Shown here: positions 16,747 to 59,850 of the stretch, piece by piece | How positions within the stretch are numbered: position 1 is the first letter of the stretch | Layout: every line of letters begins with the position of its first letter | NCBI GenBank assembly: GCA_965221605.1 | Contig: CBDCSK010000015.1 | Span: forward strand, 595,211 to 659,210 | Direction of reading: 5' to 3' | DNA from: Candidatus Aldehydirespirator sp. | GTDB lineage: Bacteria > Actinomycetota > Acidimicrobiia > Acidimicrobiales > Aldehydirespiratoraceae | Length of the DNA stretch: 64,000 nt | Program-made: the position numbers and the translations under genes | The notes under the pieces: model-generated | What the model saw: only the letters and a program-made list of their open reading frames with translations | What the model was told of the DNA's origin: nothing | Databases searched by the model: none

Positions 16747-18030
16747 TCAGGGGCCGAGGAGGGCGGCGGGCACCACCGCGATGCCGTCTCGCCGGCGGTA
16801 GGCCTCCGACCCGGTGGTGACTACGACCGCGTCCGCCAACTCGCTGCTGATCTCGTGTCGCAGCCAGTGGAGGTGCCGCACGTCGTGATCCTGGACGACC
16901 TGCGACAGCTTCGCTTCGACGGCGACAACGCGCCCGTCGTGGCCGGTGACGATGAAGTCGATCTCGCGCTTGCCGCCCCACTGGCGCAGATGGCCGACCG
17001 ACGCCTCCGCGAGTTGCGCGTAGACCCTCAGGTTCAACGCCACCAACGACTCGAACAAGGCGCCTAGCAGCGTGCCGTGGCGCGGCACCGATGGCCCGTT
17101 CGACCTCCCGTCCAGCAGCATGTCGGCATCGACTCGAAGGAGCTGGGCGGCTAGGGCGGGGTCGGCCATGAAGTGTTTGGGTCCTGTAGTAAGTCGGGCG
17201 AGTTGGTTGCGAGTGGGTGCCCAAGCAACAAGCGGGTCGACGATGTAGAGCCTCTCGAGGGTGTCCAGGTACGGCGTGGCCGCCTTGCGGCTGGGCTTGT
17301 CGCCCTGGCCGCTGGTGGCGGCGTCTCTGATCTTCTCGAACGATGCGGTAGTGCCCGTGGCCGCTGCATAGGCCGCTAGCCAGCGACGCAGCGCGCTGGG
17401 ATTACGGATATCGCGACCCGACTCCGCAATGTCGCGTTCGACAATCCGGTTGACGTAGCCGCCGAGCGAGGCCCGCCGCGCCGGCGGCGACAAGCGGCGC
17501 GTCGCAGGGAAGCCGCTCTTGAGCACCTCCTCCACATAGTCCGCGAGGCGCGCCTCGGTGCGCCCGGCGATTTCCGGGCGTTGCCCGCTCAGCAGCGCGC
17601 CGAGGCTTACTGTCGTCTTGGCCCACAGTTCGGTGTCGCGTCTCTCGCACAGCGCCAGAGGCCGCATCCTTACCCCTACGATGCGACCCGCGCCGCTGTG
17701 GGTGGGCAGGGTTGCCGGTGGTGCCGAGCCGGCCAGCAGGAACCTTTCCGGCTCCGGGTTGGCGTCCACGGCCCTGCGGACCAGGTCCCATATGGCGGGC
17801 AGTCTCTGCCATTCATCCACCGCCACGGGCGGAGGCGCTTCGATCACGCGTCGCGGGTCGGCTGCGACGGCCTCGCGAACGGAGGCATCGTCGAGGTCGA
17901 AGCGCGAGGATGCTCGCCTCAGTGCGGTCGTGGTCTTGCCGACAGCCCGCGGACCCTCTAGGCAGATGGCGGGCAGTTCGGCAAGCTCGTCGAGTTCGTC
18001 GTCGACGATCCGCGGCCAATACTCGGTCAT
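16747..18030 (-). CDS. AAA_14 / DUF4143-type ATPase (paralog 1)
   Basis: 427 aa. Walker A GPRAVGKTT, Walker B-like VAVDEWQ. C-terminal KREIDFIV....AVEAKL (DUF4143-like). Similar architecture to 43071..44363 and 45137..46390. Confidence 0.85.
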   Translation of the reverse strand: MTEYWPRIVDDELDELAELPAICLEGPRAVGKTTTALRRASSRFDLDDASVREAVAADPRRVIEAPPPVAVDEWQRLPAIWDLVRRAVDANPEPERFLLAGSAPPATLPTHSGAGRIVGVRMRPLALCERRDTELWAKTTVSLGALLSGQRPEIAGRTEARLADYVEEVLKSGFPATRRLSPPARRASLGGYVNRIVERDIAESGRDIRNPSALRRWLAAYAAATGTTASFEKIRDAATSGQGDKPSRKAATPYLDTLERLYIVDPLVAWAPTRNQLARLTTGPKHFMADPALAAQLLRVDADMLLDGRSNGPSVPRHGTLLGALFESLVALNLRVYAQLAEASVGHLRQWGGKREIDFIVTGHDGRVVAVEAKLSQVVQDHDVRHLHWLRHEISSELADAVVVTTGSEAYRRRDGIAVVPAALLGP

Positions 18031-18132
18031 CCCGGCCTCGAATCGGGGTGCTCGTTGCCGTCGTCGCTCGCGGCCGACGCCTGGCGAAGCAGCCCAGATC
18101 CCTCGAGGGTACTGTCGCTCACACTCCTAGGG

Positions 18133-18215
18133 TACAAGTCCTCTCGTCTCCAGAGTGCAATTTCTCATACCGCTAGGATGCAGTTTCTCGTAGTTCTAGG
18201 ATGCAATTTATCACG
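18133..18215. repeat. AT-rich array of 23-bp-phased TGCA-core direct repeats in the intergenic region 5' of ATPase paralog 1
   Basis: Cores at 18133 (TACA), 18156, 18179 and 18202: GTGCAATTTCTCA / ATGCAGTTTCTCG / ATGCAATTTATCA. Confidence 0.7.
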
Positions 18216-41540: not shown

Positions 41541-42580
41541 TAGACGAGTAGTTCCAAGGGGTGCGGGGGTGGTGGTGGGTCCGCGTCGTTGGGTTTGAGG
41601 GTGTCCAAGATCTGGGCTGTCAACAAGCCCCGATCTTGGAGGATCTCGGCATGAACCCGGACTTGGACACCCTCGCGACTGCACTGTATGTGCGGATCGA
41701 CGATTTGTTGGCGGCGAACCCGCAGTGGGCGCCGCTTCGGCCCGCGGTGGGGATCGCGCCTGCGCTGTCGGACGCGGAGCTGGTCACGCTGGCGGTGCTT
41801 CAGGCGCTGCTGGGCTTCGACTCTGAGGCCCGCTTCGTCCGCTACGCCAGAGCGCACCTGGGGCCGTGGTTCCCCTATGTGCCCCAGCGCAGCGGCTACA
41901 ACAAGCGGCTGCGCCGGGCCGGCGAGATGATGCGCCACGTGATCGCGGCGCTGGCGCGGGAGTGCCCGATGTGGCACGACGACGTGTGGCTGGTGGACTC
42001 CACGCCTGTCGAGTGCGGCCGCAGCCGAAGCACCCAGCAGCGCTCCGACCTCGCAGGATGGGCCGCCTACGGCTACTGCGCCTCGCACTCGCGGTGGTTC
42101 TGGGGGCTGCGCCTGCACCTCATCACCACACCGGCGGGACTGCCGGTCGCGTACGCGCTCACCGCAGCCGGAGACGACGAGCGCGACACCTGCCTCGAGA
42201 TGATCGCCAGAGCCGGGATCGCCCGGGCGGGCCAGACTCTCATCGCCGACAAGGGATACCGCTCAGCAGCCTTCGAAGCCGCCCTCAACGCCGCCGGCGT
42301 CACACTCATCCGGCCCGCCGCCAAAGGCGAGCCGCCCCGACCCGGGCGACAGTTCCTGCGCCCGCTGCGCCAGATCATCGAGTCCATCAACCAGACCCTC
42401 AAAGCCCAACTCGGCCTCGAACGCCACCACGGCCGCACCAGACCAGGCGTCGCCGCGCGCGTCCTGCAACGGCTCCTCGCCCTCACCGCAGCAATCTGGC
42501 ACAACCAAACCACCCAACAACCCGGCCCCGCCCGCAGCCTCACCGCCTACGACCACTAACCCCTTGGAACTACTCATCTA
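41541..42580 (+). mobile_element. IS982-family insertion sequence (1040 bp)
   Basis: 22-bp terminal inverted repeats: TAGACGAGTAGTTCCAAGGGGT (41541-41562) and ACCCCTTGGAACTACTCATCTA (42559-42580), 1 mismatch. A single transposase ORF lies inside. Confidence 0.85.
41651..42559 (+). CDS. IS982-family DDE transposase
   Basis: 302 aa from MNPDLDTLATALYVRIDDLL. DSTPVECGRS...GYCASHSRWFWGLRLHL...IADKGYRS pattern. Confidence 0.85.
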   Translation: MNPDLDTLATALYVRIDDLLAANPQWAPLRPAVGIAPALSDAELVTLAVLQALLGFDSEARFVRYARAHLGPWFPYVPQRSGYNKRLRRAGEMMRHVIAALARECPMWHDDVWLVDSTPVECGRSRSTQQRSDLAGWAAYGYCASHSRWFWGLRLHLITTPAGLPVAYALTAAGDDERDTCLEMIARAGIARAGQTLIADKGYRSAAFEAALNAAGVTLIRPAAKGEPPRPGRQFLRPLRQIIESINQTLKAQLGLERHHGRTRPGVAARVLQRLLALTAAIWHNQTTQQPGPARSLTAYDH

Positions 42581-42851: not shown

Positions 42852-42958
42852 TCTCGGAGTTACACGCCACAACCATGGCCACATACCACGCTCAATGAAG
42901 CTGGGAGCCCGCCACACGGAACTGCAATGGCAAGTCGATCCGAGTTGGTCCTCGCCCC

Positions 42959-43040
42959 TGCAAAGTGCCCGGCAATGGCCCTGCAATATGCTCGCTATAG
43001 ATCCTGCAATATGCTCGGCAATTTATCTGCAATATGCATG
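42959..43040 (+). repeat. 23-bp-phased TGCA-core direct repeat array upstream of ATPase paralog 2
   Basis: TGCA cores at 42959, 42982, 43005 and 43028 (CTGCAAAGTGC / CTGCAATATGC x3). One extra out-of-phase unit at 42923. Confidence 0.75.
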
Positions 43041-43070
43041 CTGATCATTTGGTGAAGGTATGATGAGCCT

Positions 43071-44363
43071 ATGTCATCGGCCTCCTTCGGACAGGCGGGA
43101 CCGCTCACTCCGGACGGCTACCTAACGCGGGTCGCCGATGTCGTGGTGGGACGGGCGCTGGCGATCTCCCCGATCGTCGTGGTGGAGGGTGCCCGCGGCA
43201 CCGGCAAGTCGTGGACCGGCCTTCGCCATGCCCGCAGCCAGATCCGGCTCGACCGCGACCCCGGCGCCGTAGAGGCCGCCTCGCTGCGGCCTGGCGCGGC
43301 CCTGGAGGGCGACCGGCCGCGACTCGTCGACGAGTGGCAGCTCGCTCCGGGCCTGTGGAACTTCGCCCGCCATGTTGTGGACGCCGAGTCGGGCCGGGGC
43401 CGCTTCATCTTCACAGGATCGGCCCATCCGCCCGACGACCGCACCCGTCACTCCGGCGCGGGCCGCGTGGTGCGGGTGCGGATGCGGCCCATGTCGCTGG
43501 CGGAGTCGGGCGAGTCGTCGGGCGAGGTGTCTCTCGGCTCGCTGCTCGCCGGCGGCGACTGCTCGGCGGGGGCTTCTGCCGCCACCGTCGATGACGTGGT
43601 GGAGGCGCTGTGCCGGGGCGGCTGGCCTCGCCATCTGGGGATGGCGGTGGCGGACGCACAGTCGCTGTGCCGCGCCTACCTGCAGGAGGTTGCTCGGGCA
43701 GACATCGGCCGGCTGGGGCGGTCGCGGCACCGGCCCGAGGGCGTTCGGAGGCTGCTGTCCTCGCTGAGCCGCAACATCGCGACCGCGGCCGCGGCGAGCA
43801 CCCTGTCCGACGACATCGCCGGTGACGCCTCGCCTTCCCGGAACACGGTGGCGGAGTACCTGGAGGCGCTCAGGCGGGTGTTCGTGGTCGAGGACCTGCC
43901 GGCCTGGGCGGTGCACCTCAGGTCGCGGGCGCGGTTGCGGCGGTCTCCCAAGCGTCATCTGGTGGATCCTTCGCTGGCGGCGGCGACGCTGCGGGCTGGA
44001 CCTGAGCGCCTGTGGCGTGATGTCGGCTATCTGGGTCAGGCTTTCGAGTCGCTGGTGGTGCGCGATCTGCGGGTGTACGCGGAGGCGAACGACGCCGACG
44101 TGTGGCACTTCCGCGACAGCAACGGCCACGAGCTCGACGCCGTGGTGGCGCATGGCGACGGCCGCTGGCTGGCCGTGGAGGTCAAGCTGGGTTCCGGGGA
44201 GCGGCTGGACGAGGCCGCCCGGTCGCTCACGCGGGCCTGTGAACAGATCGACCCATCCAAGGTGGGCGAGCCTGCCAAGAAGCTGGTGATTACCGCCGCC
44301 GGCTACGGCTACGAGCGCCCCGACGGCGTGACGGTGCTGCCCATCACCGCCCTCGGCCCGTAG
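43071..44363 (+). CDS. AAA_14 / DUF4143-type ATPase (paralog 2)
   Basis: 430 aa. Walker A GARGTGKSW, LVDEWQ, C-terminal HELDAVV...AVEVKLG. Confidence 0.85.
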   Translation: MSSASFGQAGPLTPDGYLTRVADVVVGRALAISPIVVVEGARGTGKSWTGLRHARSQIRLDRDPGAVEAASLRPGAALEGDRPRLVDEWQLAPGLWNFARHVVDAESGRGRFIFTGSAHPPDDRTRHSGAGRVVRVRMRPMSLAESGESSGEVSLGSLLAGGDCSAGASAATVDDVVEALCRGGWPRHLGMAVADAQSLCRAYLQEVARADIGRLGRSRHRPEGVRRLLSSLSRNIATAAAASTLSDDIAGDASPSRNTVAEYLEALRRVFVVEDLPAWAVHLRSRARLRRSPKRHLVDPSLAAATLRAGPERLWRDVGYLGQAFESLVVRDLRVYAEANDADVWHFRDSNGHELDAVVAHGDGRWLAVEVKLGSGERLDEAARSLTRACEQIDPSKVGEPAKKLVITAAGYGYERPDGVTVLPITALGP

Positions 44364-44857
44364 CCCGCCTCGGCTGAGCCGGGAGAACGCACGACGATCC
44401 TCCGGCTCGTCGTCCCTGCCACCCGCCCGGGTCCGTGGCCTGCGGCCGTGGCCGTGGTCAGATCCGAGATGTTGGCGTTGATGACGCCAGCGGTCTCGAG
44501 CGCGACGATGAGAGCAGTCAGCTTCAGGCCCAGTTCGTCGATCTTCTCTTCCAGCTCCTCTATCTTCGTGTCTTGGGCCGCGAATCTGTCGTCCATCTTC
44601 ACTTCGAGACGCGTGATCCTGTCGTTGGTGTCGCTGATCCGTACGTTGGTGACGGTGAGCGAGAAGCCCAGCAGCACGACCACGACGGCGCCGAGTATGG
44701 CGGGCAGGGGGTCCTCCACGAGCTTGGCCCATGTGCTCGGCCTCACCGCCGGGGCGGATCCGGCCGGGGCAGGTTCCGGCAGTGTCGGTCGGGGGTCGGC
44801 CATAGGGTCGTTGTGTGGTTGCGGTTGGAGCGTCGCTGGTGGGAGGGATGCGGTCAC
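44309..44857 (-). CDS. Membrane-anchored coiled-coil protein (hypothetical)
   Basis: TM helix LPAILGAVVVVLLGFSLTV followed by the heptad-like ITRLEVKMDDRFAAQDTKIEELEEKIDELGLKL. The last ~18 codons run antisense through the ATPase 3' end, so the true C-terminus is uncertain. Confidence 0.45.
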   Translation of the reverse strand: MTASLPPATLQPQPHNDPMADPRPTLPEPAPAGSAPAVRPSTWAKLVEDPLPAILGAVVVVLLGFSLTVTNVRISDTNDRITRLEVKMDDRFAAQDTKIEELEEKIDELGLKLTALIVALETAGVINANISDLTTATAAGHGPGRVAGTTSRRIVVRSPGSAEAGYGPRAVMGSTVTPSGRS

Positions 44858-45011
44858 GGTGCCTCGCTTGAGGGGGCGGCGCGTGGCTCGGCGCTGTCGT
44901 GTGTGGATGACTGCCGCGTAGCCCGGCAGCGAGGCACAGTAGATGAAAATACACTACAACCTATGTTGTGTCAACTTTGTCGAGCCCGTCCGCACCCCTG
45001 CTCACAGTAGT

Positions 45012-45116
45012 TGCGGATAGCCGATCACAGGAATTGCAAACTGTTGGTTCAATATGTTGCAGATCGCTGATTCCAAGAGTTGCAGATTGCTGGTATGAAT
45101 ATTGCAGAATGCTGGT
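45012..45116 (+). repeat. 23-bp-phased TGCA-core direct repeat array upstream of ATPase paralog 3
   Basis: Cores at 45012 (TGCG), 45035, 45058, 45081 and 45103: TTGCGGATAGCC / TTGCAAACTGTT / TTGCAGATCGCT / TTGCAGATTGCT / TTGCAGAATGCT. Confidence 0.75.
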
Positions 45117-45136
45117 GATAGCCCTATTGTGCGACT

Positions 45137-47942: not shown

Positions 47943-49190
47943 ATGGATGAACTCACGATTGAGCGGCTCACTGAAGCCGTGGCGGGCGGAGCGGTCGCGC
48001 TCCGGTCGATCATGCGGCTACAGCCTGCTGATGGCCCGGGAGGCAAGGTCTTCCCGCCCACCTACGCAGTGGCTGACTCGGCAGAGAACAAGTACGCCGT
48101 TGAGGACCGCCAGGTCGGCGACCGGGTGGCGACGACGGTGCTGCTCGACTCGGTGGCGTCGCAGGCCAACCGAGCCGAGCTAGCCCTCCTGGATGGCTGG
48201 GAGGAGGGCGAACTGAGCTTCCCTGTGCCCTACGTGGACTTCGCCGGGGAGCCGGGTCTGAGCGACCTGGACCGCATCACCGTGCTCCAGGCACCCCACC
48301 GCCTGGCGGACGCGATCTTCCGGGACAGCTTGCTCGACGGCACGCTGTTCCGGCTCAGCGACATCGGCCGAGCGATCACGGACGCGCGCCCCGGCAACGC
48401 CACCGAGATGTTCCGCTACGCGCCCACGGCCCTGCTGTTCGGGCAGTGGGACTCGACAGGACCGAAGGGTGGTCTCGGATCGAAGTTCCAGCGCGCCTAC
48501 GTCTCGGAGGTCGTCGGGTTGGACGCTGAGACCGGAGTCAAGGTTGGCAGTCGCATCGATCCTCTCCAAATCGAGAAGCTGCCACCTGACAGGGTGGCCT
48601 ACAACCATCAGGACGAGACTCAGGTCTGGACGTTCGACAAGGACGAGGCAGCGAGCGGGACGGGAGGCAGGCCTGAACCCGCCTCGCGCGGCAGTGCGAG
48701 TGGTACCGCTGGACAACCGTCCAAGATCAACCACGGCAACATTGCGCCATCCATCGATTCGCGTGCCGGTGGTGTCACCATCTCGGAGGCTCGTCAGACC
48801 AGCGTGCTGTCTCTGGCGGCACTCCGGCGGCTGCGATTCGCTGGCCACAGTCGTGAGGCTCAGGTGGCAGCTAGGACGGCTGTCGCGGCCTTGGGCGTTG
48901 CGGCCATCACCTATGGCTACGAGGCCGATCACGATCTGCGGTCCAGATGCCTGCTCGTCCCCGAGCACGCTCCAGTCCTTGAGATGGTCGGCAGAGACGG
49001 CGAAGTACCGGCCGCTGTCGGCGTGGATCGGGAGTCCGCTGGGCGACTGCTGTCGGAGGCGTCGGCCCAGGCGGCCCGGGCCGGCATCGGCTGGTCTGAG
49101 GCCGAGATCGTCCTGAAGCCAGCGCCCAAACTGGTCGAGTTGCTGCGCCGCAGCCGCGACGTGGCGGCGCGCGAGCCCGCTGGGGAATGA
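47943..49190 (+). CDS. cas7: Type I-G (I-U) Cas7, Csb1 family
   Basis: 415 aa. AAAGGAG SD. Csb1 hallmarks KVFPPTYA...YAPTALLFGQWDSTG...IAPSI. Confidence 0.85.
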   Translation: MDELTIERLTEAVAGGAVALRSIMRLQPADGPGGKVFPPTYAVADSAENKYAVEDRQVGDRVATTVLLDSVASQANRAELALLDGWEEGELSFPVPYVDFAGEPGLSDLDRITVLQAPHRLADAIFRDSLLDGTLFRLSDIGRAITDARPGNATEMFRYAPTALLFGQWDSTGPKGGLGSKFQRAYVSEVVGLDAETGVKVGSRIDPLQIEKLPPDRVAYNHQDETQVWTFDKDEAASGTGGRPEPASRGSASGTAGQPSKINHGNIAPSIDSRAGGVTISEARQTSVLSLAALRRLRFAGHSREAQVAARTAVAALGVAAITYGYEADHDLRSRCLLVPEHAPVLEMVGRDGEVPAAVGVDRESAGRLLSEASAQAARAGIGWSEAEIVLKPAPKLVELLRRSRDVAAREPAGE

Positions 49191-49193
49191 CCG

Positions 49194-50954
49194 ATGACCG
49201 TCATAGAGGTGAGTTTCCTCACCGGTCGCTATAGCGCTACGGCGCACCACGATCGCCAAGAGCCCGAGTGGCCCCCACACGGTGCCCGGCTGTTTTCCGC
49301 GATCGTTGCTGTTTGGGCGGATTCCGACCCTCCCGAGGCGGTCGAGCGCGCCGCGCTTGAGTGGCTGGAAGCGCAGCCTCCTCCGCGCATCACAGCACCG
49401 GAGGCAGTCCGCCGCCGTGTGGTCAGCCACTTCGTGCCTGTCAACGACGCCGCCGTCGTTCCTGCGGCTCAGTACAAGCGTCGGGCGGACGAGGTGGAAG
49501 GTCTCATCGCTCAATGGGAGAACGAACTGGATGCGTCAGGAGGCGAGATCACGAAGAAGATCGAGAGGCTACAGACCAAGATCGACGCGAAGCGCAATGT
49601 CGATTCACTGGTGAGCGGCCCGAGAAACACGAATCCCGACTCCGCTGAGGCTCTGCTGCCCGACGGACGCGTCAAGAAGGAACGGTACTTCCCCTCGGTG
49701 ACGCTGGTAGAGACGGCGACCGGTGGCGCTTCGACGAAGTCCGCTCGCCTCGTGAGCGGCGAAGGCGCTCCCGCGACAGCCACGAAGCGACTTCCAGCGG
49801 TGGTCTATGCGTGGGACGACAGCCCTCCGGTTGGCGTTGCTCAGGCGCTCGACGGTCTCCTGGCTCGTGTCACTAGACTGGGCCACTCGTCGTCCCTGGT
49901 GTCCTGCCGCTTGCGTGATAGTGCGCCCGTCGCCACACACATGCCGGGCAACGGCGCGGAGATGCTGCGATGGGTCCGGCCCGGGCAACTCGTGGCGCTT
50001 CAAGATGAGCATCGGCAGCATCAAGCCATCAGGCCCAGGAGCCTTCCGTTTCGCGGGGTGCGATACAGCGCGACGGTGCTCGACAGCAGCGATTCGGCCG
50101 AGACGGCGACCCCGGCGACGGCAGGTGACTGGATCGTGCTCGAACTGCGGCCGCCCAGGAGCCGGCCCATGACCCGCACCGTTGAACTCACGCGGGTGTT
50201 GCGCAAGTCCGTGCTCAGCCATGTGCCGGACCCTCCGCCGGAGGGAGTCAGCGGACATAGGCACGACGGCAGGCCTACGACTTCACCCCACATTGCCTTC
50301 CTCGCGTTGCCCAACGTCGGTCACCAGCATGGCGACGGCCGGATCATGGGCATGGCCATCTCCCTTCCACACGACTTGGGCGGCGCGGCGCGGAACGCCA
50401 CTCTGCGCGGCATCGGCGCTTGGGAGAGCAAGCGCGCCGACCGGTCAATGCACCTGCAACTGGGACGCAACGGAACTGTCGAGATGCAAAGAGGCCACCC
50501 GCCCATTGCGCTTGTGAGCCTTCGCCCGGAGGTGTGGGCCCGCCCGTCCCGATGGTGGGCGTCGGCCACCCCTGTTGCACTGCCCGCGCATCCCGGCAAT
50601 CTCCGCAGAGCCGATCCCGTGGCCCGAGCGAAGGCTTGGGCGCGGGCCGAGGAGGCCGTCGCGAGGTCGTGTGAGCATGTCGGCCTGCCACGGCCAATAG
50701 ATGTGCGGGTGTCATTCGTGTCGCTCTTGACCGGGGCGCATCCGGCAGGCGACTTCCCCATCTTCAAGCAGGGCCGCCCAGAACACGGGGAAGTGGTTCG
50801 GCGACTCGTCCATGTAGCGGTCGAGTTCGCCGAGGAGGTACGCGGCCCGCTGATGCTGGGGAGCGGCCGATTCTTGGGCTTGGGACTCATGGGGCCCATG
50901 GACGATGACCCCGATCAGCACTCCGAGGACGCCGATGGAGCGAGCGATGAGTGA
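49194..50954 (+). CDS. cas5: Type I-G (I-U) Cas5-Cas6 fusion, Csb2 family
   Basis: 586 aa. N-terminal FLTGRYSATAHHDRQEPEWPPHGARLFSAIVA is typical of Csb2. C-terminal glycine-rich GSGRFLGLGL loop. Confidence 0.85.
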   Translation: MTVIEVSFLTGRYSATAHHDRQEPEWPPHGARLFSAIVAVWADSDPPEAVERAALEWLEAQPPPRITAPEAVRRRVVSHFVPVNDAAVVPAAQYKRRADEVEGLIAQWENELDASGGEITKKIERLQTKIDAKRNVDSLVSGPRNTNPDSAEALLPDGRVKKERYFPSVTLVETATGGASTKSARLVSGEGAPATATKRLPAVVYAWDDSPPVGVAQALDGLLARVTRLGHSSSLVSCRLRDSAPVATHMPGNGAEMLRWVRPGQLVALQDEHRQHQAIRPRSLPFRGVRYSATVLDSSDSAETATPATAGDWIVLELRPPRSRPMTRTVELTRVLRKSVLSHVPDPPPEGVSGHRHDGRPTTSPHIAFLALPNVGHQHGDGRIMGMAISLPHDLGGAARNATLRGIGAWESKRADRSMHLQLGRNGTVEMQRGHPPIALVSLRPEVWARPSRWWASATPVALPAHPGNLRRADPVARAKAWARAEEAVARSCEHVGLPRPIDVRVSFVSLLTGAHPAGDFPIFKQGRPEHGEVVRRLVHVAVEFAEEVRGPLMLGSGRFLGLGLMGPMDDDPDQHSEDADGASDE

Positions 50955-53900
50955 TCTCACAGCCGGTGATTTCGACAGGTATTTCCGGGACGTTCACGGC
51001 CAACCGCCCTATCCGTGGCAGAGTCGCCTTACCCGGAAGGTGCTCGATGAGGGCCGATGGCCCGACGTGATCGACCTGCCTACGGGCGTCGGCAAGACCG
51101 CTGTGCTCGACACGGCGATCTTCGCACTTGCGGCCCGTCCTGACATCTCGCCCCGCCGGATCGTATTCGTCGTCGACCGGCGCATCGTGGTGGATCAGGT
51201 CTATGAGCGCGCCCGGTGCATCAGGGACAAGATCGCTGCGGCGACCGGCGGTGTCCTGGCAGACGTCCAGATGCTCCTGCGCGAGTTGACGGACGCCGAG
51301 CCCCTAGGGGTCGCGGCTCTGCGAGGTGGCGTCCCGATCGATGGCGAATGGGCACTACGGCCCGAGCAGCCGTGGGTGATCGTGTCCACCGTCGATCAGT
51401 TCGGTTCGCGCCTGCTCTTCAGGGGCTACGGCGTCAGCCACAGGATGCGCCCCGTTCACGCGGGCCTCGCAGGCAACGACTGTCTCGTGATCTTGGACGA
51501 GGTGCATCTGAGCCGGGCCTTCGCCGCGACACTGCGGGACGCGTCATCTGACGGTGCGGTGCCCTTGATGCGCTCGGTTGGTGGTGGCTTGCCGCGCCGC
51601 TTCCAAGTCGTGGAGATGTCCGCCACGCCCGCAAGTGAGTCCGGCTGGCGGTTCGAGTTGGAGGATTCGGACCTCGACCAGGCGCAGACGCTCAAGCAGA
51701 TCGCAACGGCCCTGAAGCGGGCGAAGCTGGTTGAGATAGGCGGCACCCGTCCACCGCACGAGTCGGTGCCCAAGAAGGTCTTGGAGATCGTCAAGCAGGA
51801 ATTGCCAGAGGATGAGTCCTTGAACAGTAGTCTTGAACCCGCGCAATTGGGAGACGGCGAGCGAAGCGTGGGCGTCATCGTCAATCGCGTCCAGACCGCC
51901 CGGCTGACCTGCGACACGCTGAGAGAGGCGGGCATCGAGACCTACCTGGTGACGGGCCGAATGCGCCCGCTCGACAGGGAACAAGTCCTGCAAGACATCA
52001 GCGAGAGTGTCGATCCGGATCGGAGCGAGCCGCTGGATCAGCGCACTGTGGTTGTCGCCACCCAAGCGATCGAGGTCGGTGCCGACTTCAGCTTCGACGC
52101 ACTCATCAGCGAGGCCGCCCCCATCGACAGCCTGTGCCAACGATTGGGGCGCCTCGACCGACGAGGCACTCTCGCCGCACGGCGCGGCGGTCCAGCCCGA
52201 TGCTGGATTCTCGGCGTGGCCTCGGCCTTGAACCCCAAGCGTCCCGATCCGGTCTACGGAGATGCCGCGCGGCGCGCATGGGAGGAACTGCAGACTCGCG
52301 CCGCAGATGGCGAGATCGATGTCGGCCCCGGTGCTGGCCTGCTTGCCACTCTTGGTCCTGACGCGCATGCACCGAAGCCGAAAGAGCCCTTGCTGCTTCC
52401 GACCCACATCGAAGCCTGGTCTCAAACCAGCCCTGAGCCCGTCGTGGACCCGCCGATCGCGGAGTTCCTGCACGGCAAGGAGCGACAGCAGGAGCCTGAC
52501 GTTTCTGTCGTGTGGCGCTGGGATCGTACGCCCAGGGCGCTTGAGTTGGTTCCGCCCCGGCCGGCCGAGTTCCTGTCGGTTCCGATCTCCGCGGTCACGA
52601 GGTGGCTCCGCGGCTCCTCGGAGGTGCCAGTGTCAGACACCGCGGTGATGCCTCCGCACGAGGAGGGTCGGAGCGCGGGCCGCGCTCATGGCGACAGCCA
52701 GTCAGCGGTCCTGGCGCGGCAACGAGTGGTGCGCTGGGCGAGACACCAAGGCGCGACGACGGAACGAGTGGAGCATGTCGATGACATCAACCCCGGAGAT
52801 GTGATCGTCGTCGATCCGATGCTGGGCGGCCTGCACAACGGCACCTGGGATCCGACATGCCGCCCCGCCTCTCGGACAGCCGAGTCCAGGGGCGACGATC
52901 CGCCACCGGTTGAGGACTTGGGTGACGAGGCGCAAGTCGTTCACGGAAGGCGAGACGGCGATCTGCGTGGTGTACGGGCAACGCTGCGGCTGGATCAGCG
53001 TCTACGCGAGCGGATTGTGTCTGAGGGTGGGCGACTGCCTCCGGGTCCAGCTGATGAACAGGATGCTGAGTTGCCCCTACGCGGGGTCGTCAAGGACTGG
53101 CTCTCGGAGATGCAGAGCCTGCCGTCTCTTCCCGACTGGATGAAGCGGGTCGTCGGGCACTTCGTTGCCGAAGAACGGTTCGACATTGAGACGGTCGAGT
53201 CCGAATCGGAGTCTCACTACTACGTACTGGTAGGCCGCTCAGTCGATCCGTCCGCTCTCGACGAGTCTGACGACGAGCCGTCCCTTACCGGCACCGAGAC
53301 GCCCCTTCGCTGCCATCTCGCCGGTGTCGGAGCTCGGGCTGCGGACTACGGGTCGCGTCTCGGCCTGTCCACCGAGGTTGTGGCGGACTTGCGTCTCGCC
53401 GGGGAGTTGCACGACCTGGGCAAGGTCGACCCGCGCTTCCAGGCCCAGCTCCACGGCCACGATCCGGTGCGGATGGCTGAGTCGGAAGCCACGGGGGAGC
53501 CGCTGGCCAAGTCGCTCCGGCGTGTTCGCCCGCATCCTCACAAGTGGCCACCGGTCCGTCATGAGTTCAGCAGCGTGGCACTGGCGCAGAGTGACGAGGC
53601 TTTGCTCAAACGTGCTCATGATCGTGATTTGGTTCTTCATCTCGTGGGAACCCATCACGGCTTCGGAAGGCCACTGCCGACGATCAGATCGGACGACAGG
53701 CCTCAGCAGCTGACGGCGGTCGGTTGGCTCGACGACGAGAGGTTCCGCCTCCGCGCTGCCGGCGGGTCTCATCAAGTCGAGGAGAGTGGCGGCCCTGTGT
53801 CCATGACCTTGTCTTCAGACCTCGCCGAGACAGCGCTCGCCCTGGAGATGGCGGACCGGTTCTGGCGATTGCAGGAGCGCTACGGGCATCACGGCCTCGC

Positions 53901-53967
53901 CTGGCTTGAAGCCATCATTCGTCTAGCCGACCACCAGCAGAGCGCGGAGGAGGCACGACGTGGCTGA
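50947..53967 (+). CDS. cas3: Cas3 helicase with C-terminal HD nuclease domain (type I-G architecture)
   Basis: Walker A LPTGVGKTAV, motif II ILDEVH, C-terminal HD (HLAGV...ELHDLGKVDPRFQ...HH). Start chosen at ATG 50947 (8-nt overlap with csb2); alternatives at 50905 and 50935. Confidence 0.9.
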   Translation: MSDLTAGDFDRYFRDVHGQPPYPWQSRLTRKVLDEGRWPDVIDLPTGVGKTAVLDTAIFALAARPDISPRRIVFVVDRRIVVDQVYERARCIRDKIAAATGGVLADVQMLLRELTDAEPLGVAALRGGVPIDGEWALRPEQPWVIVSTVDQFGSRLLFRGYGVSHRMRPVHAGLAGNDCLVILDEVHLSRAFAATLRDASSDGAVPLMRSVGGGLPRRFQVVEMSATPASESGWRFELEDSDLDQAQTLKQIATALKRAKLVEIGGTRPPHESVPKKVLEIVKQELPEDESLNSSLEPAQLGDGERSVGVIVNRVQTARLTCDTLREAGIETYLVTGRMRPLDREQVLQDISESVDPDRSEPLDQRTVVVATQAIEVGADFSFDALISEAAPIDSLCQRLGRLDRRGTLAARRGGPARCWILGVASALNPKRPDPVYGDAARRAWEELQTRAADGEIDVGPGAGLLATLGPDAHAPKPKEPLLLPTHIEAWSQTSPEPVVDPPIAEFLHGKERQQEPDVSVVWRWDRTPRALELVPPRPAEFLSVPISAVTRWLRGSSEVPVSDTAVMPPHEEGRSAGRAHGDSQSAVLARQRVVRWARHQGATTERVEHVDDINPGDVIVVDPMLGGLHNGTWDPTCRPASRTAESRGDDPPPVEDLGDEAQVVHGRRDGDLRGVRATLRLDQRLRERIVSEGGRLPPGPADEQDAELPLRGVVKDWLSEMQSLPSLPDWMKRVVGHFVAEERFDIETVESESESHYYVLVGRSVDPSALDESDDEPSLTGTETPLRCHLAGVGARAADYGSRLGLSTEVVADLRLAGELHDLGKVDPRFQAQLHGHDPVRMAESEATGEPLAKSLRRVRPHPHKWPPVRHEFSSVALAQSDEALLKRAHDRDLVLHLVGTHHGFGRPLPTIRSDDRPQQLTAVGWLDDERFRLRAAGGSHQVEESGGPVSMTLSSDLAETALALEMADRFWRLQERYGHHGLAWLEAIIRLADHQQSAEEARRG

Positions 53968-54886
53968 TTCCGACTGCACGGTGTTGCGGGGCCTACCGGG
54001 GGACAATCCGCTGGGTTTCTTGGCTGCCTTGGGAGTTCAGGTGGCCCTGGCAGCGCAAGGTGACGAACACACCTTGCACTGGACCGACGAGCCGATTCCC
54101 CATCCGGTTGTATCGCCTTCCATCGGGCTAGATTGGATCGCCCGAGCTGCTGTCGGCGTTGCTCAGGAATGGCTCAGTGGCCCGGTGCTGTCAACGAGCA
54201 TAAGTCAAACGCTCAAGATGGATGCGGAGGAAGTTCTGGACTATCTGAAGCGATGTAGAGGTCATGGAAGGAACGGCGTTCTTGCCCTCTGCCTAGTGGC
54301 GGAGGGTAGTCGATATTCGAGCGGGAATGCACTTGGAAAGTCAAAGCCCACTGAGTTCTACTTCACCGCAGCCCGCCAGCAGTTTCTTGCCATGGCGAGA
54401 GAAAGGCTCCAGAGTACGTCTGAGGAACAAATTGTCATGGACATCGTGGCCCCGTGGAAGTATCAGTGCGATGACAACAATTCACTGATGTGGGATCTTA
54501 TCTCTGATAGGCATCATGCGCACAGCTCAGCAGATCCCACCGACAAGACGTTAAACCCCAAAGTGACGAATGCGGGCGCAGAGGCTGTCGCGATTCTCGG
54601 CTTGAGGCTCTTTCCTTGCTTTGGGTCAGACGGATCAATATTGACGACAGCGATTCATGGGAGAGGCAGGAACAAGCGTTTTCTCTGGCCTCTGTGGACC
54701 GTTCCCGCTAGTCCCCGCGCCGTGTCTTCGTTGGTGACACACGTTGCACCTTCGAGTGACGATAGAAGCCGATTGGATTGGTATCACGGATGGGGCATCT
54801 CGCTCGTAATGGAGTCTCAGATTCGAAGCCGCGGACAGGGATTTGGGACCTTCGGGCCGCCTAAGGTTGTCTGGCAGCGTGACTGA
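53960..54886 (+). CDS. Small Cas8u-type large-subunit candidate (Csb3/Csx17-N-terminal-like)
   Basis: 308 aa, GTG start overlapping the cas3 stop. N-terminal LRGLPGDNPLGFLAALGVQVAL resembles Cas8u/Csx17 N-termini. It occupies the large-subunit slot. Its GC is markedly lower than the flanking cas genes. Confidence 0.6.
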   Translation: MADSDCTVLRGLPGDNPLGFLAALGVQVALAAQGDEHTLHWTDEPIPHPVVSPSIGLDWIARAAVGVAQEWLSGPVLSTSISQTLKMDAEEVLDYLKRCRGHGRNGVLALCLVAEGSRYSSGNALGKSKPTEFYFTAARQQFLAMARERLQSTSEEQIVMDIVAPWKYQCDDNNSLMWDLISDRHHAHSSADPTDKTLNPKVTNAGAEAVAILGLRLFPCFGSDGSILTTAIHGRGRNKRFLWPLWTVPASPRAVSSLVTHVAPSSDDRSRLDWYHGWGISLVMESQIRSRGQGFGTFGPPKVVWQRD

Positions 54887-56516
54887 CGTTCCGGAACTCG
54901 TTCCGGCTCGGATGATCAACGAGTTCGAGTACTGCCCGCGGCTGTTCTACCTGGAGTGGGTGCAGTCGCGCTTTGAGCACAATCAGGACACGATGGAGGG
55001 CATATACGTCCATCGGGCCGTCGATGCCGGCGGGGGCAGGATGGGCGAGGCTGGCGATCCGCCGTTCAGGAAGGCCAGGTCTGTCGAGCTGAGCTCTCAG
55101 CGGCTCGGGCTGATAGCGAAGGCCGACATCGTCGAGCAGCGGGACGGCAAGGTCGTGCCCGTCGAGGTCAAGAGGGGCCGTCCGCCTCTGCACGGGCCCG
55201 CCTGGATGCCCGAGAAGGTGCAGCTTTGCACGATCGGGCTCCTGCTGCGCGACAACGGCTACCAATGCGCGGAGGGTCAGATCTACTTCGCCGAGACCCG
55301 CAAGCGGACCACGATCCCCCTCGACGACATGCTGGTGGCGCACACGCTCCAGCTCGTCGAGCAGCTCCGCGAGGTCGCGTCTGATCCCCGTGCCCCGCCG
55401 CCGCTGGTGGACAGCCCGAAGTGCCCGAGATGCTCGCTGGTGGGCATCTGTCTGCCCGACGAGACGAACCTCCACGCAGGCCGGAGCATGGCTGCTCCCC
55501 GCCGTCTCACGCCGCGCGACTCGGCGGCGCGTCCGCTGTATGTGACCGAGCAGGGCGCCCGGGTCGGCATCCGCTCCGGCCGCGTCGTGGTCAGCAAGAA
55601 CCGCGAGGAGCTCCAGCAGCTCCGCCTCATCGACGTCTCGCAGATCTCGCTCTACGGCAACGTCCAGGTGAGCAGCCAGATGATGCGGGCCGCGTTCCGC
55701 GAGGGGATACCGGTCTGCTGGTTCTCCTACGGAGGGTGGTTCCAGGGCATTGCCGAGGGGCTGCCGTCCAAGCATGTGGACCTACGCCGCCGCCAGGTAG
55801 CGATCGCGGCTCAAGCGGGCCTGCCGATCGCCCAGTCGATGATCGAGGGCAAGCTGCGGAACTCGCGGACATTCCTGAGGCGCAACGCCCGCTCCGACGT
55901 CAAGACGGTGCTGGAGCAGCTCAAGTCGCTGGCTGACGCCGTGGGCAACAGCGAGTCGATCGAGAGCTTGTTGGGAATGGAGGGCACCGGTGCCCGTCTG
56001 TACTTCTCGCGGTTCTCCTCGATGATCCGCGACCAGAGCCTGGGGCACTTCGACTTCAACGGACGCAATCGACGACCGCCCAAGGATCCCGTCAACTGCC
56101 TGCTGTCGTACGTGTATGCGCTCCTCACGAAGGATCTGACCGCGGTGGCCATCGCCGTCGGGTTCGACCCGTACCTGGGGGTCTTTCACCGGCCGCGGTT
56201 CGGCCGGCCGGCGTTGGCGCTGGACCTCGCTGAAGAGTTCCGCCCGCTGGTCGCCGAGTCGGTGGTGATCAACGTCATCAACAACGGCGAGATCAGCGAG
56301 AGGGACTTCCTGACCCGGGCCGGAGGGGTCGCGCTCACCCAGGACGGCAGGCGATCGGTGCTCGCCGCCTACGAGCGAAGGCTCGATACCGAGGTCACTC
56401 ATCCCACGTACGGGTATCGGATCACCTATCGGCGTGTCTTCGAGGTCCAAGCCCGTGTGCTGGCCGCCCATCTGCTGGGGGAGGTCCCCTGCTACACCCC
56501 CTTCATGACCAGGTAG
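54879..56516 (+). CDS. cas1: Cas4-Cas1 fusion protein
   Basis: N-terminal RecB-like Cas4 (INEFEYCPRLFYLEW...CPRCSLVGICLP Cys cluster) followed by Cas1 (YVTEQGARVG...GMEGTGARLYF...DLAEEFRP). The GTG overlaps the upstream stop (GTGACTGA). Confidence 0.9.
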   Translation: MTDVPELVPARMINEFEYCPRLFYLEWVQSRFEHNQDTMEGIYVHRAVDAGGGRMGEAGDPPFRKARSVELSSQRLGLIAKADIVEQRDGKVVPVEVKRGRPPLHGPAWMPEKVQLCTIGLLLRDNGYQCAEGQIYFAETRKRTTIPLDDMLVAHTLQLVEQLREVASDPRAPPPLVDSPKCPRCSLVGICLPDETNLHAGRSMAAPRRLTPRDSAARPLYVTEQGARVGIRSGRVVVSKNREELQQLRLIDVSQISLYGNVQVSSQMMRAAFREGIPVCWFSYGGWFQGIAEGLPSKHVDLRRRQVAIAAQAGLPIAQSMIEGKLRNSRTFLRRNARSDVKTVLEQLKSLADAVGNSESIESLLGMEGTGARLYFSRFSSMIRDQSLGHFDFNGRNRRPPKDPVNCLLSYVYALLTKDLTAVAIAVGFDPYLGVFHRPRFGRPALALDLAEEFRPLVAESVVINVINNGEISERDFLTRAGGVALTQDGRRSVLAAYERRLDTEVTHPTYGYRITYRRVFEVQARVLAAHLLGEVPCYTPFMTR

Positions 56517-56520
56517 GACT

Positions 56521-56820
56521 ATGGCCGCTGGAAGGACGCGCTATTTGGTGAGCTACGACATCAGCGACGCCAAACGGCTCAGGCAGGTGCACAAGACCAT
56601 CAAGGCCTATGGCTGGCCGATGCAATACAGTGTCTTCATCTGCGATCTCGATTCCGTCGAGCTGCTGGTCCTGAAGCAGGAGGTGGGTACGATCATCCAC
56701 CACGGTGAGGATTCCGTCGCCTTCGTGAATCTCGGTCCTCCAGCCAACCGGGGCCGGGAGTGCTTCGACTTCATGGGGATCCGGTCGGAGCTCCCGACCT
56801 CTGGTCCCACGATCATCTGA
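56521..56820 (+). CDS. cas2: Cas2
   Basis: 99 aa. YLVSYDISDAKRLRQVHKTIKAYGWPMQYSVF is the typical Cas2 N-terminal beta-alpha motif. Confidence 0.9.
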   Translation: MAAGRTRYLVSYDISDAKRLRQVHKTIKAYGWPMQYSVFICDLDSVELLVLKQEVGTIIHHGEDSVAFVNLGPPANRGRECFDFMGIRSELPTSGPTII

Positions 56821-56990
56821 TGCGAGCGCTAGGTTGAGCCCCCGAGTCCCAAGGACCGCTCGAAGCCTTGCGGCGCAAGGCAAACCGCAGCTTGACAATT
56901 CACCGAACGGACCTTCGAAGCCCTTCGCTTCTTGCACCGCTCGCAAGGCTCCGCGAAAGGGGAGTTCAGAGACCCCGAATCAAGCAAGCG

Positions 56991-57340
56991 GTTTGGCCGG
57001 GCAATTGCCCGGCCCTCCATTGAAGGGACGACTTCGCGCTTGGAGAACAGACGACCGGGCGCGTTTGGCCGGGCAATTGCCCGGCCCTCCATTGAAGGAT
57101 GACCGGAGCCGCTGCCAGCGGGTTTGGCCGCAATTGCCCGATTGAAGGCTGCCATTCTCGCGTTTGGCCGGGCAATTGCCCGGCCCTCCATTGAAGGCAC
57201 CCCCAGATGGACGCGACGCTGCGAAAGCTGCTGGTTTGGCCGGGCAATTGCCCGGCCCTCCATTGAAGGCTCGCCGGCCTCGACAGGGTCGCCTCCGCGG
57301 TGGGGTTTGGCCGGGCAATTGCCCGGCCCTCCATTGAAGG
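56991..57340 (+). CRISPR. CRISPR array, repeat family A (36 nt: GTTTGGCCGGGCAATTGCCCGGCCCTCCATTGAAGG), 5 intact plus 1 internally deleted repeat
   Basis: Intact repeats at 56991-57026, 57063-57098, 57162-57197, 57234-57269 and 57305-57340. Degenerate 27-nt repeat at 57122-57148. Spacer lengths 36, 23, 13, 36 and 35 nt. Confidence 0.9.
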
Positions 57341-57353
57341 ATGGTCCTGGGAT

Positions 57354-57462
57354 GCCCGGCCCTCGGGCCGGGCGAGGATTGAAACAGGCGTGGATCCTGT
57401 TGTGGCTTCCATCGATCCGAAGGTGCAGCGCCCGGCCCTCAGGGCCGGGCGAGGATTGAAAC
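57354..57462 (+). CRISPR. CRISPR array, repeat family B (core GCCCGGCCCTC(A)GGGCCGGGCGAGGATTGAAAC), 2 repeats
   Basis: Cores at 57354-57385 and 57430-57462, differing by one loop nucleotide. About 40-44 nt lie between them. Only 13 nt separate the last A repeat from the first B core. Confidence 0.8.
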
Positions 57463-59385: not shown

Positions 59386-59477
59386 CCAAGACGCCGGCGG
59401 CTGAGCCGTCCGGCTCGCTACCACGCGCCCGGGCGCTCGCTCGGGCTCCCGGGCTTGAAGTCGCGCGGTCTCGGCAT

Positions 59478-59822
59478 GCAGGAGGTGGCTCGCGCCGACA
59501 TCCCCCGCCTGGGCCGCACGACGCACCGGCCCGAGGCGGTGCTCGGGATGCTGGCGTCGCTGAGCCGCAACATCGCCACCACGGCCGCGGCCACCAACCT
59601 CTCCGAGGACATCGCGGGGGACGGCGCCCCGTCGCGCGCGGCCGTGGCCGCGTACCTGGAGGCGCTGAGACGGGTGTTCGTTGTGGAGGACCTGCCCGCC
59701 TGGGCCGTCCATCTGAGGTCGAGGGCGCGGCTCGAAGCCGCCGCGAGGTCGCTGACGAGGGCTTGCGACCAGATCGACACGGCCCGGGCGGGCGAGCCGG
59801 CCAAGAAGCTCGTGATCACCGC
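59478..59822 (+). pseudogene. Decayed DUF4143 ATPase paralog (lacks the P-loop domain; internal ~110-codon deletion)
   Basis: QEVARADIPRLGRTTHRPEAV...VFVVEDLPAWAVHLRSRARL joins directly to EAAARSLTRACDQID..GEPAKKLVITA. It is collinear with 43682-43945 plus 44210-44300 of paralog 2. Confidence 0.75.
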
Positions 59823-59850
59823 TCGTTCCTCCGGAGCCAAGCAACAGGTC

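Follow-up and report, generated by a model that had tools for sequence, protein, structure and literature searches.

Direct-repeat arrays with a 23-bp period upstream of DUF4143 ATPase-nuclease genes, a candidate defence family

Three paralogs and their arrays in the window

We describe arrays of phased direct repeats that lie 5' of ATPase-nuclease genes of the DUF4143 family, starting from a 64-kb stretch of Candidatus Aldehydirespirator sp. (contig CBDCSK010000015.1, positions 595,211 to 659,210), hereafter the window. Three full-length paralogs (p1, p2 and p3) and the remnant of a fourth are present (Table 1). A sequence-only reading of the window had reported two arrays before two DUF4143 ATPase paralogs. 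Both arrays are real and both downstream open reading frames (ORFs) do encode AAA_14 and DUF4143 domains, in proteins 56% identical to one another; a third array and a third paralog had been overlooked. The arrays before p1 and p2 occupy AT-rich islands, as that reading also held, with GC fractions of 0.45-0.50 against a window mean of 0.685.

In array 1 the CTGCAA boxes start at 42958, 42981, 43004 and 43027, a spacing of 23/23/23 that agrees with the TGCA cores first noticed at 42959, 42982, 43005 and 43028. Tandem Repeats Finder reports a period of 23 with 3.5 copies, and a repeat finder reports spacings of 23 and 23. The final unit ends at 43049, leaving a gap of 21 nt to the ATG at 43071. 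Array 2 had been read as five units; four of these are good, with TTGCA boxes spaced 23, 23 and 22 nt (repeat finder), and the unit at 45012 is a degenerate copy, since it has TGCG there and not TGCA. Its final box ends at 45115, with the GTG at 45137 lying 21 nt further on. Array 3, on the minus strand, stands ~114-136 nt upstream of the p3 ATG.

Three TGCAR motifs at exact 23-nt spacing occur at 3 places in the window, with 0.00 expected (100 shuffles). The third place, at 18156-18206, is 5' of p3, so that every full-length paralog in the window (3/3) has an array. The box types of p1, p2 and p3 are each confined to their own array within the window. Arrays 1 and 2 also match each other over 14 nt in inverted orientation; considered as an inverted repeat, this match reflects only the palindromic TGCA core. 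Low-depth public DNA sequencing runs (one sample) mapped to the locus revealed no variation in array length and no transcript ends.

Table 1. Coordinates of the features of the window
Feature	Position	Strand	Basis
p3, DUF4143-family ATPase, 427 aa, 35-38% identical to p1/p2	16747..18030	-	tblastn, PADLOC
Array 3, three good units GAkAAAyTGCAyyCTrG (minus-strand starts 18212, 18189, 18166) and one degenerate	18121..18213	-	
DDE transposase ORF (DDE_Tnp_1), just 5' of array 1	41561-42559		
Lone box-like copy CTGCAATGGCAAG, 36 nt 5' of array 1, off-phase, holds TGCA at 42923	42922..42934	+	direct reading
Array 1, four 23-nt units, CTGCAAwrTGCyCG box and variable spacer, 5' of p1	42958..43049	+	sequence, repeat finders
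-10-like hexamer TATGAT, ends 6 nt 5' of p1 ATG	43059..43064	+	inferred from sequence
p1, AAA_14 + DUF4143 ATPase-nuclease, 430 aa, PADLOC PDC-S01	43071..44363	+	Pfam, PADLOC
Array 2, five units (first degenerate, TTGCGG; rest TTGCArAyTGyTGG at 45034, 45057, 45080, 45102)	45011..45124	+	
-10-like hexamer TATTGT, ends 6 nt 5' of p2 GTG	45125..45130	+	inferred from sequence
p2, AAA_14 + DUF4143, 417 aa	45137..46390	+	Pfam, PADLOC, structure model
Cas_GSU0053	47943-49190		
Cas_GSU0054	49194-50954		
Cas3 helicase-HD	50905-53967		
Cas4-Cas1 fusion	54843-56516		
CRISPR array, ~36-nt repeat GTTTGGCCGGGCAATTGCCCGGCCCTCCATTGAAGG, Rfam CRISPR-DR9 match	56984-~57462		
Schlafen AlbA_2 + HATPase_c_4 gene, after the CRISPR array and before the fourth-paralog remnant	57607-59385		
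Fourth-paralog remnant, keeps only residues ~188-282 and 371-416; lacks the N-terminus and the array, internal deletion	59461..59844	+	

Conservation of the period among homologs

We assembled 80 homologous loci, one genome per species, with proteins 47-93% identical. Most come from sponge- or coral-associated Acidimicrobiia, and others from Gemmatimonadota, Chloroflexota and Cyanobacteriota. Periodicity was scored at lags of 8-40 in the 300 nt 5' of each gene, with tiles from the same loci as control. Lag 23 was strongest in 66 of 78 upstream regions versus 23 of 1205 control tiles, and the score rose above the 99th percentile of control tiles in 63 of the 78. Strong lag-23 arrays numbered 49 throughout these loci, and 42 of them lie directly 5' of a paralog. 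Of the seven elsewhere, one precedes a gene remnant and one is an orphan, while the rest are artefacts or GC-rich coding repeats.

The period extends to more distant relatives. Nineteen ATPase homologs (L120-L138) were found on IMG/VR contigs classed as viral, and lag 23 was strongest in all of those testable for arrays (18/18; 35-44% identity, low GC). Prophages or other mobile elements may carry the ATPase gene; alternatively, these contigs may be misclassified. Among 23 plasmid homologs at 23-50% identity, spanning Actinomycetota, Bacteroidota, Chlorobiota, Bacillota, Pseudomonadota, Deinococcota and Campylobacterota, lag 23 was best in 10 (Collinsella, two Bacteroides, Prosthecochloris, Lentilactobacillus, Spartinivicinus, Azotobacter, Sulfitobacter, Asticcacaulis and Ruminococcus) and lag 22 in ~5 more (Roseivivax, Agrobacterium, Rhodoferax and Thermus; weakly Brucella and Aminobacter). 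On plasmids of Runella and Moraxella and on a second Azotobacter plasmid, the promoter is covered by a palindrome in place of an array, centred on TATAAT in the Moraxella case; judged by sequence, this is the classic layout of an autorepressor. Three further plasmid cases are ambiguous.

In a register-free analysis we took the most repeated 12-mer of each upstream region and measured the spacing between its successive copies. The spacing is exactly 23 in 101/121, 36/47 and 14/32 successive pairs for three homolog sets, and the remainder is mostly 46 or 22. What is conserved is thus the period, not TGCA. The sequence-only reading had proposed a comparison of the regions before homologs in related genomes, and its outcome is positive: the 23-bp phasing is strongly enriched across phyla. 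The TGCA core is specific to some lineages and gives way, as the conserved property, to the period together with a loose consensus box. Such conservation across phyla rules out chance or neutral duplication as the origin of the arrays.

Arrays of 23-nt units were also met away from these genes: (i) An orphan array at L062:5242-5325 has four 23-nt units in which two types of box take turns (46-nt superperiod; GTCCAwwTTGTAG). It is flanked by an aminotransferase-like ORF and a membrane-protein ORF, and no DUF4143 gene was detected alongside. (ii) Two termite-gut-type metagenome contigs (L105:10-295 and L109:4-197) bear a satellite of at least 13 near-identical 23-nt units, AATAAACTGTAGGCCTCAACACC, with no ORF downstream and no relation to DUF4143 genes. 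(iii) At L108:3538-3570, two to three 23-nt AAACTGTAGG units lie 3' of a MalT-like STAND gene (AAA_16 + TPR_MalT + LuxR HTH) and 5' of a DUF4386 gene; this may be a separate, unrelated instance of a STAND-type regulator with phased direct-repeat sites.

Unit anatomy and specificity

When the units of one array are set in a common register, the identity between them is 0.64-0.84 at positions 1-14, ~0.5 at 15-19 and ~0.35 at 20-23, so that a unit consists of a 14-16-nt box and a free spacer. The box follows a loose family consensus, C-Y-G-n-A-A-A-n-T-G-n-A-G-K, and lineage box types include CTGCAATATGC, TTGCAGATTGCTGG, AAACTGTAGG, AAAGTGGAGT and AATTGGACGG. In a leave-one-out comparison the fit to this consensus beats 95% of column shuffles in 32 of 48 arrays, and is better in the orientation of the gene than in reverse in 39 of the 48; the arrays are therefore homologous and polar. 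All units of an array are direct repeats in one orientation relative to the gene, and arrays extend over 70-140 bp upstream.

Boxes are private to their gene. Orthologs of p1 (74-93% protein identity; L001-L006, L008) keep the CTGCAAT-TG box while their spacers differ. Where one genome has several paralogs, their boxes disagree at 6 or more of the 14 positions, as against the 1.9 mismatches that a unit has to its own consensus. Over 447 kb of flanks, 119 matches to the own box fall inside arrays and 1 outside (1.2 expected). No reverse-strand match was found outside arrays in those 447 kb, and inverted copies are lacking on the 3' side as well as within 2.5 kb. Apart from further paralogs, the homolog loci have no conserved neighbouring gene.

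Position relative to predicted promoters

The -10-like hexamers of p1 and p2 (Table 1) stand in a layout relative to the start codon that recurs at L001, L007, L020 and L062; the ortholog at L062 has TATTGT 7 nt before its own GTG. A hexamer only 6 nt from the start codon suggests, from sequence, a leaderless transcript. Leaderless transcripts are common in Actinomycetota. At the homolog loci the start codon comes ~35-48 nt past the start of the last unit, and a TANNNT beginning 19-37 nt past the start of the last unit is found 24 times versus 2.1 expected (~11-fold). The last box of array 2, TTGCAG, doubles as a -35-like element, being 17 nt 5' of TATTGT.

Near-consensus promoters are predicted in low-GC homologs, beginning 0-8 nt past the last box (TTGACA-17-TAATAT at L133, TTGCAA-17-TATAAT at L126 and TTGATT-17-TATACT at L123), and in Bacteroidota homologs a TAnnTTTG element follows the array likewise. 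Across homologs, then, the array stops where the predicted core promoter begins or reaches into its -35 region, a placement expected of an autoregulatory operator.

We also considered that the arrays could be duplicated -35/-10 promoters. Internal units lack hexamer pairs, the conservation is that of a single contiguous 14-nt box, and the boxes of most lineages resemble neither hexamer, the p2-type last box alone doubling as a -35, so this candidate was rejected.

The ATPase-nuclease proteins

Pfam matches p1 and p2 to DUF4143 (E = 6e-32 and 6e-33) and to AAA_14 (E = 3e-10 and 1e-11); p3 was assigned to the family by tblastn, with full-length alignment to p1 and p2, and by PADLOC, not by Pfam. 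The PADLOC profile PDLC04790 (PDC-S01) hits all three (E = 2e-66 for p1, 3e-70 for p2 and 1e-78 for p3). An NCBIfam search of the ATPase gave no match. Invariant in 55 sequences are G31-K32-T33 and D73-E74 (Walker A/B) and, of the PD-(D/E)XK catalytic residues, E312 and D342; the remaining E356-x-K358 is nearly so.

An AlphaFold2 model of p2 (mean pLDDT 90.3, pTM 0.91) divides the protein into a predicted AAA+ domain (residues 1-150), a helical lid (159-196), a winged helix (208-283; helices 208-220, 228-236 and 243-255, wing 259-283) and a PD-(D/E)XK nuclease domain (304-411). The best PDB fold match to the model is archaeal Orc1/Cdc6 on origin DNA (2qby_A, E = 9e-6, probability 1.00), with a TM-score of only 0.28-0.31. 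Next come ORC, SAMD9, CED-4, NLR STAND proteins, Avs5, clamp loaders, RuvB and DnaA, of which the STAND proteins and clamp loaders score similarly. Because the TM-scores are low (~0.3), the likeness to Orc1/Cdc6 is one of architecture, not close homology. A PDB search by sequence produced just a marginal match, the helix-turn-helix regulator Cmr (E = 0.009).

DUF4143 has been placed in the PD-(D/E)XK superfamily (PMC3424549). The family had been called uncharacterised; it now counts as PADLOC defence candidate PDC-S01, the fourth most common such candidate across prokaryotes, with ~39,000 instances, unvalidated (PMC12988326), and the source preprint lists PDC-S01-type candidates as untested (bioRxiv 10.1101/2024.01.29.577857), and experimentally the family is untouched. 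These accounts of protein prevalence, domains and phylogeny (PMC12988326; bioRxiv 10.1101/2024.01.29.577857; PMC3424549) make no mention of an upstream repeat array. In literature on DUF4143, COG1373, PDC-S01 and guilt-by-embedding we found no earlier description of the 23-bp element, in line with the impression of the sequence-only reading that no regulatory element had been described.

Genomic setting

The p1 and p2 genes lie between an insertion sequence (IS) transposase and a type I-U/I-G-like CRISPR-Cas locus (window 47943-57462; Table 1), which follows p2 directly. With the Schlafen-type gene and the paralog remnant beyond it, the whole of 43-60 kb has the look of a defence island in which genes come and go. 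The depth of public runs over the DDE_Tnp_1 ORF is ~50-180 versus ~3-8 over the ATPase genes (10-40x), and several variant contigs end at ~42530-42580; together these suggest a multi-copy IS with an edge near 42580. Homologs on plasmids often have toxin-antitoxin, restriction or IS genes as neighbours.

The AT-rich island before p2 is partly due to a divergent promoter on the minus strand, a near-consensus sigma-70-like TTGACA-17-TATTTT at 44946-44974 that faces away from array 2. It points to a 182-aa ORF (44309-44857, minus) with no Pfam match and a 21-nt tandem repeat at 44608-44658.

Decayed copies were seen elsewhere too. The closest relative of p1 carries a p2-like ORF with a large internal deletion (L001:3745-4401), and at L055:3897-4274 a two-unit array still precedes what is left of a DUF4143 gene, a C-terminal fragment. 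An array can thus persist for some time after its gene has decayed.

A probable autoregulatory operator and its alternatives

We consider it probable that each array is a cooperative operator, bound head-to-tail by the product of its own gene and so autoregulatory; here we infer the binder, the cooperativity and the sign. The sequence-only reading had left the choice between the ATPase and a partner protein. The evidence favours the ATPase, because its gene is the sole conserved companion of the arrays, the boxes are private, the protein is predicted to contain a DNA-binding module of initiator type (the winged helix), and palindromic variants replace the array at some loci; a partner is disfavoured by the lack of any conserved neighbour. 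One protomer would bind each 14-16-bp box through the winged helix, possibly aided by an AAA+ loop, and ATP-dependent head-to-tail contacts between protomers would set the 23-bp register. As 23 bp is ~2.2 helical turns, successive protomers would spiral round the DNA and not line one face. As the unit nearest the promoter adjoins the -35 region or reaches into it, cooperative occupancy of the 3-6 units would set the transcription of the gene, with occupancy of that unit governing access of RNA polymerase. Autoregulation is probably repression, judging from the low-GC promoters, which are near consensus, from the product, a potentially toxic nuclease, and from the palindromic variants, which fall on the -10. 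The outcome would be tight negative feedback on that nuclease. Since each paralog has a private box, the paralogs of one genome would not cross-regulate.

Several observations weigh against this autoregulatory operator, or limit its reach. The centre of the last box falls near -49 at low-GC loci, where the box leaves the -35 hexamer itself uncovered; this position would suit an activator too, and the promoters predicted at high-GC loci have no recognisable -35. Array 3, at 114-136 nt from its start codon, is off the usual layout. A clear array is missing in ~15% of close and about a third of distant homologs. Box divergence, compared with protein divergence in a sliding window once overall protein divergence is removed, reaches a partial r of 0.31 at residues 106-125 (AAA+ loop), followed by the lid and by winged-helix residues 208-227 and 236-253 (0.21-0.26), with ~0 in the nuclease core; this covariation hints at self-binding, and is weak (partial r at most 0.31), confounded by phylogeny and suggestive only. 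The sampled homologs are bacterial, the plasmid searches having returned bacteria only, and the archaea, which hold a quarter of PDC-S01 genes, fall outside the sample. Finally, a metagenome search for AAACTGTAGG-N13-AAACTGTAGG retrieved 16 loci (~8 distinct elements), 0 of them beside a DUF4143 gene and among them probable plasmid iterons beside a weak Rep-like match, a 23-nt satellite and others; this box and period alone are therefore not diagnostic of the family.

The most interesting alternative, compatible with all observations though we think it rather unlikely, is that the array is a platform for assembly or storage, which nucleates an ATP-dependent helical oligomer of the ATPase-nuclease on the DNA of the cell itself and holds the nuclease inactive or primed until infection dislodges or activates it, with any effect on transcription secondary. 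The predicted fold resembles initiators and STAND sensors that act as DNA- or ligand-triggered oligomers, and the genes are found in defence islands (here with CRISPR-Cas, elsewhere with restriction and toxin-antitoxin systems). A period of 23 bp, which does not amount to full helical turns yet is kept exactly across phyla, suggests the geometry of an oligomer over the same-face spacing of operators, and arrays of 70-140 bp exceed what a simple operator needs. Yet 3-6 sites per gene would hold few molecules, the constant position relative to the promoter is more simply explained by regulation, and the palindromic variants look like ordinary operators.

It is also conceivable, but improbable, that the boxes are bound not by the ATPase but by some other host factor, for instance a global regulator or a nucleoid protein. 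The loose consensus is common to many lineages, as a shared factor would have it, and the ATPase itself is a putative DNA binder. Such a factor would have to read paralog boxes that differ at 6 or more of 14 positions in one genome and are confined to their arrays, in the window and in the 447 kb of flanks with their single outside match, and no partner gene is conserved; one factor reading such varied boxes from Bacteroides to Acidimicrobiia is unlikely.

We think it very improbable that gene and array form a module for replication or mobility, the repeats being iterons of an Orc1-like initiator's origin or transposase-type sites at the end of an element. This would account for the Orc1/Cdc6-like fold, for iteron-like repeats adjoining the gene, for the many homologs on plasmids, some with no typed replicon (Collinsella pCaero1, Spartinivicinus pB), and for genes gained and lost among relatives, with remnants at 59461-59844, L001 and L055. 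It does not fit with the presence of three arrays within 64 kb, with single chromosomes that carry at least four paralogs, with the lack of an inverted box at the 3' side or within 2.5 kb, or with the single orientation of the units, which is unlike the pairs of origin recognition boxes (ORBs) of Orc1/Cdc6; moreover most host plasmids have a typed replicon of their own, and a nuclease domain is unexpected in an initiator. Transposon ends of the Tn7 or Mu type were rejected as a candidate, the 447 kb holding 0 reverse and 1 forward own-box matches outside arrays and hence no matching inverted sites at another end.

Least probable of all is that the repeats act in RNA, as a 5' leader motif transcribed from a promoter 5' of the array, given that -10-like elements and full sigma-70-like promoters are predicted 3' of arrays, that folding z-scores (+1.1, +0.2 and -0.9) are no better than for shuffled sequence, that Rfam has no match on the window arrays (gathering threshold) or on eight plasmid loci (E up to 0.1), and that the protein fold is that of a double-stranded-DNA binder.

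Comparison with known systems

Theta-plasmid iterons (pPS10, R6K, P1, F) are phased direct repeats of ~17-22 bp that are private, are bound cooperatively and feed back on their own promoter. Like iteron-Rep modules, the arrays are strictly phased tandem direct repeats of private sequence beside a gene. They differ in having an AAA+ ATPase-nuclease where the plasmids have a WH1-WH2 Rep, and a period of 23 bp. Moreover, iterons are part of an origin that also contains DnaA boxes and an AT-rich unwinding element; no origin features were found here, and there are several arrays per chromosome. Iterons mark one origin per replicon, and here three arrays occur in 64 kb of chromosome, with up to four paralog loci per chromosome, so that 'iteron', suggested for these arrays at first sight, is not supported in the replication sense; Rep protein and origin features are lacking.

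Archaeal Orc1/Cdc6 with its ORBs (PDB 2qby) is the best fold match to the predicted AAA+-lid-winged-helix part, at a TM-score of only ~0.3, and there too the sites are found beside the gene of the protein. The two-part DNA contact of Orc1/Cdc6, by winged helix and AAA+ element, would fit a 14-16-bp box with a weaker flank. Unlike ORBs, which are inverted boxes flanking an unwinding region, the units here are direct and in a single orientation, and unlike Orc1/Cdc6 the proteins have a nuclease domain and belong to a mostly bacterial, multi-copy family of defence islands.

ParR of plasmid R1 is a ribbon-helix-helix protein that binds parC with an 11-bp period, serves partition together with a separate motor, and autoregulates its promoter as a cooperative helical complex. 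Like parC, the array is a short set of direct repeats just 5' of the promoter and overlapping it; unlike ParR-parC, it has a 23-bp period and goes with an AAA+ ATPase-nuclease. MalT and the SARP/AfsR regulators are STAND-type activators of other genes with sensor repeats; their oligomerisation, which depends on nucleotide, governs cooperative binding to direct repeats that adjoin or overlap the -35 region. Direct repeats at -35 are common to both, and STAND proteins (CED-4, NLR, Avs5) are among our fold matches; site spacing and DNA-binding domains differ, and only the present system has a nuclease and a private self-array. The element thus resembles iterons, ORBs and centromere-type operator arrays, and does not qualify as a member of any of these classes.

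Significance

A private phased array before nearly every sampled gene gives this abundant candidate family its first concrete molecular handle. It predicts sequence-specific binding of double-stranded DNA by an initiator-like module, and supplies the exact candidate ligand. In practice, cloning the gene with or without ~150 bp of native upstream DNA may alter the outcome of a defence assay, and the arrays are an aid to annotation of start codons, orientation and decayed copies. The protein-operator pairs, mutually insulated if our interpretation is right, would form a natural set.

A bolder proposal, for which we would give only a small chance, is that the arrays, beyond being operators, serve as cognate DNA ligand to an immune sensor-nuclease of the Orc1/Cdc6-like kind, which would assemble on its private array as an ATP-dependent helical oligomer, one protomer to every 23 bp. 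Phage DNA, an anti-defence protein or a change in supercoiling would make or break this complex and so switch expression and nuclease activity together, amounting to an 'iteron-gated' single-gene defence in a large share of bacteria. More generally, the arrays link defence ATPase-nucleases with the logic of replication initiators and their iterons.

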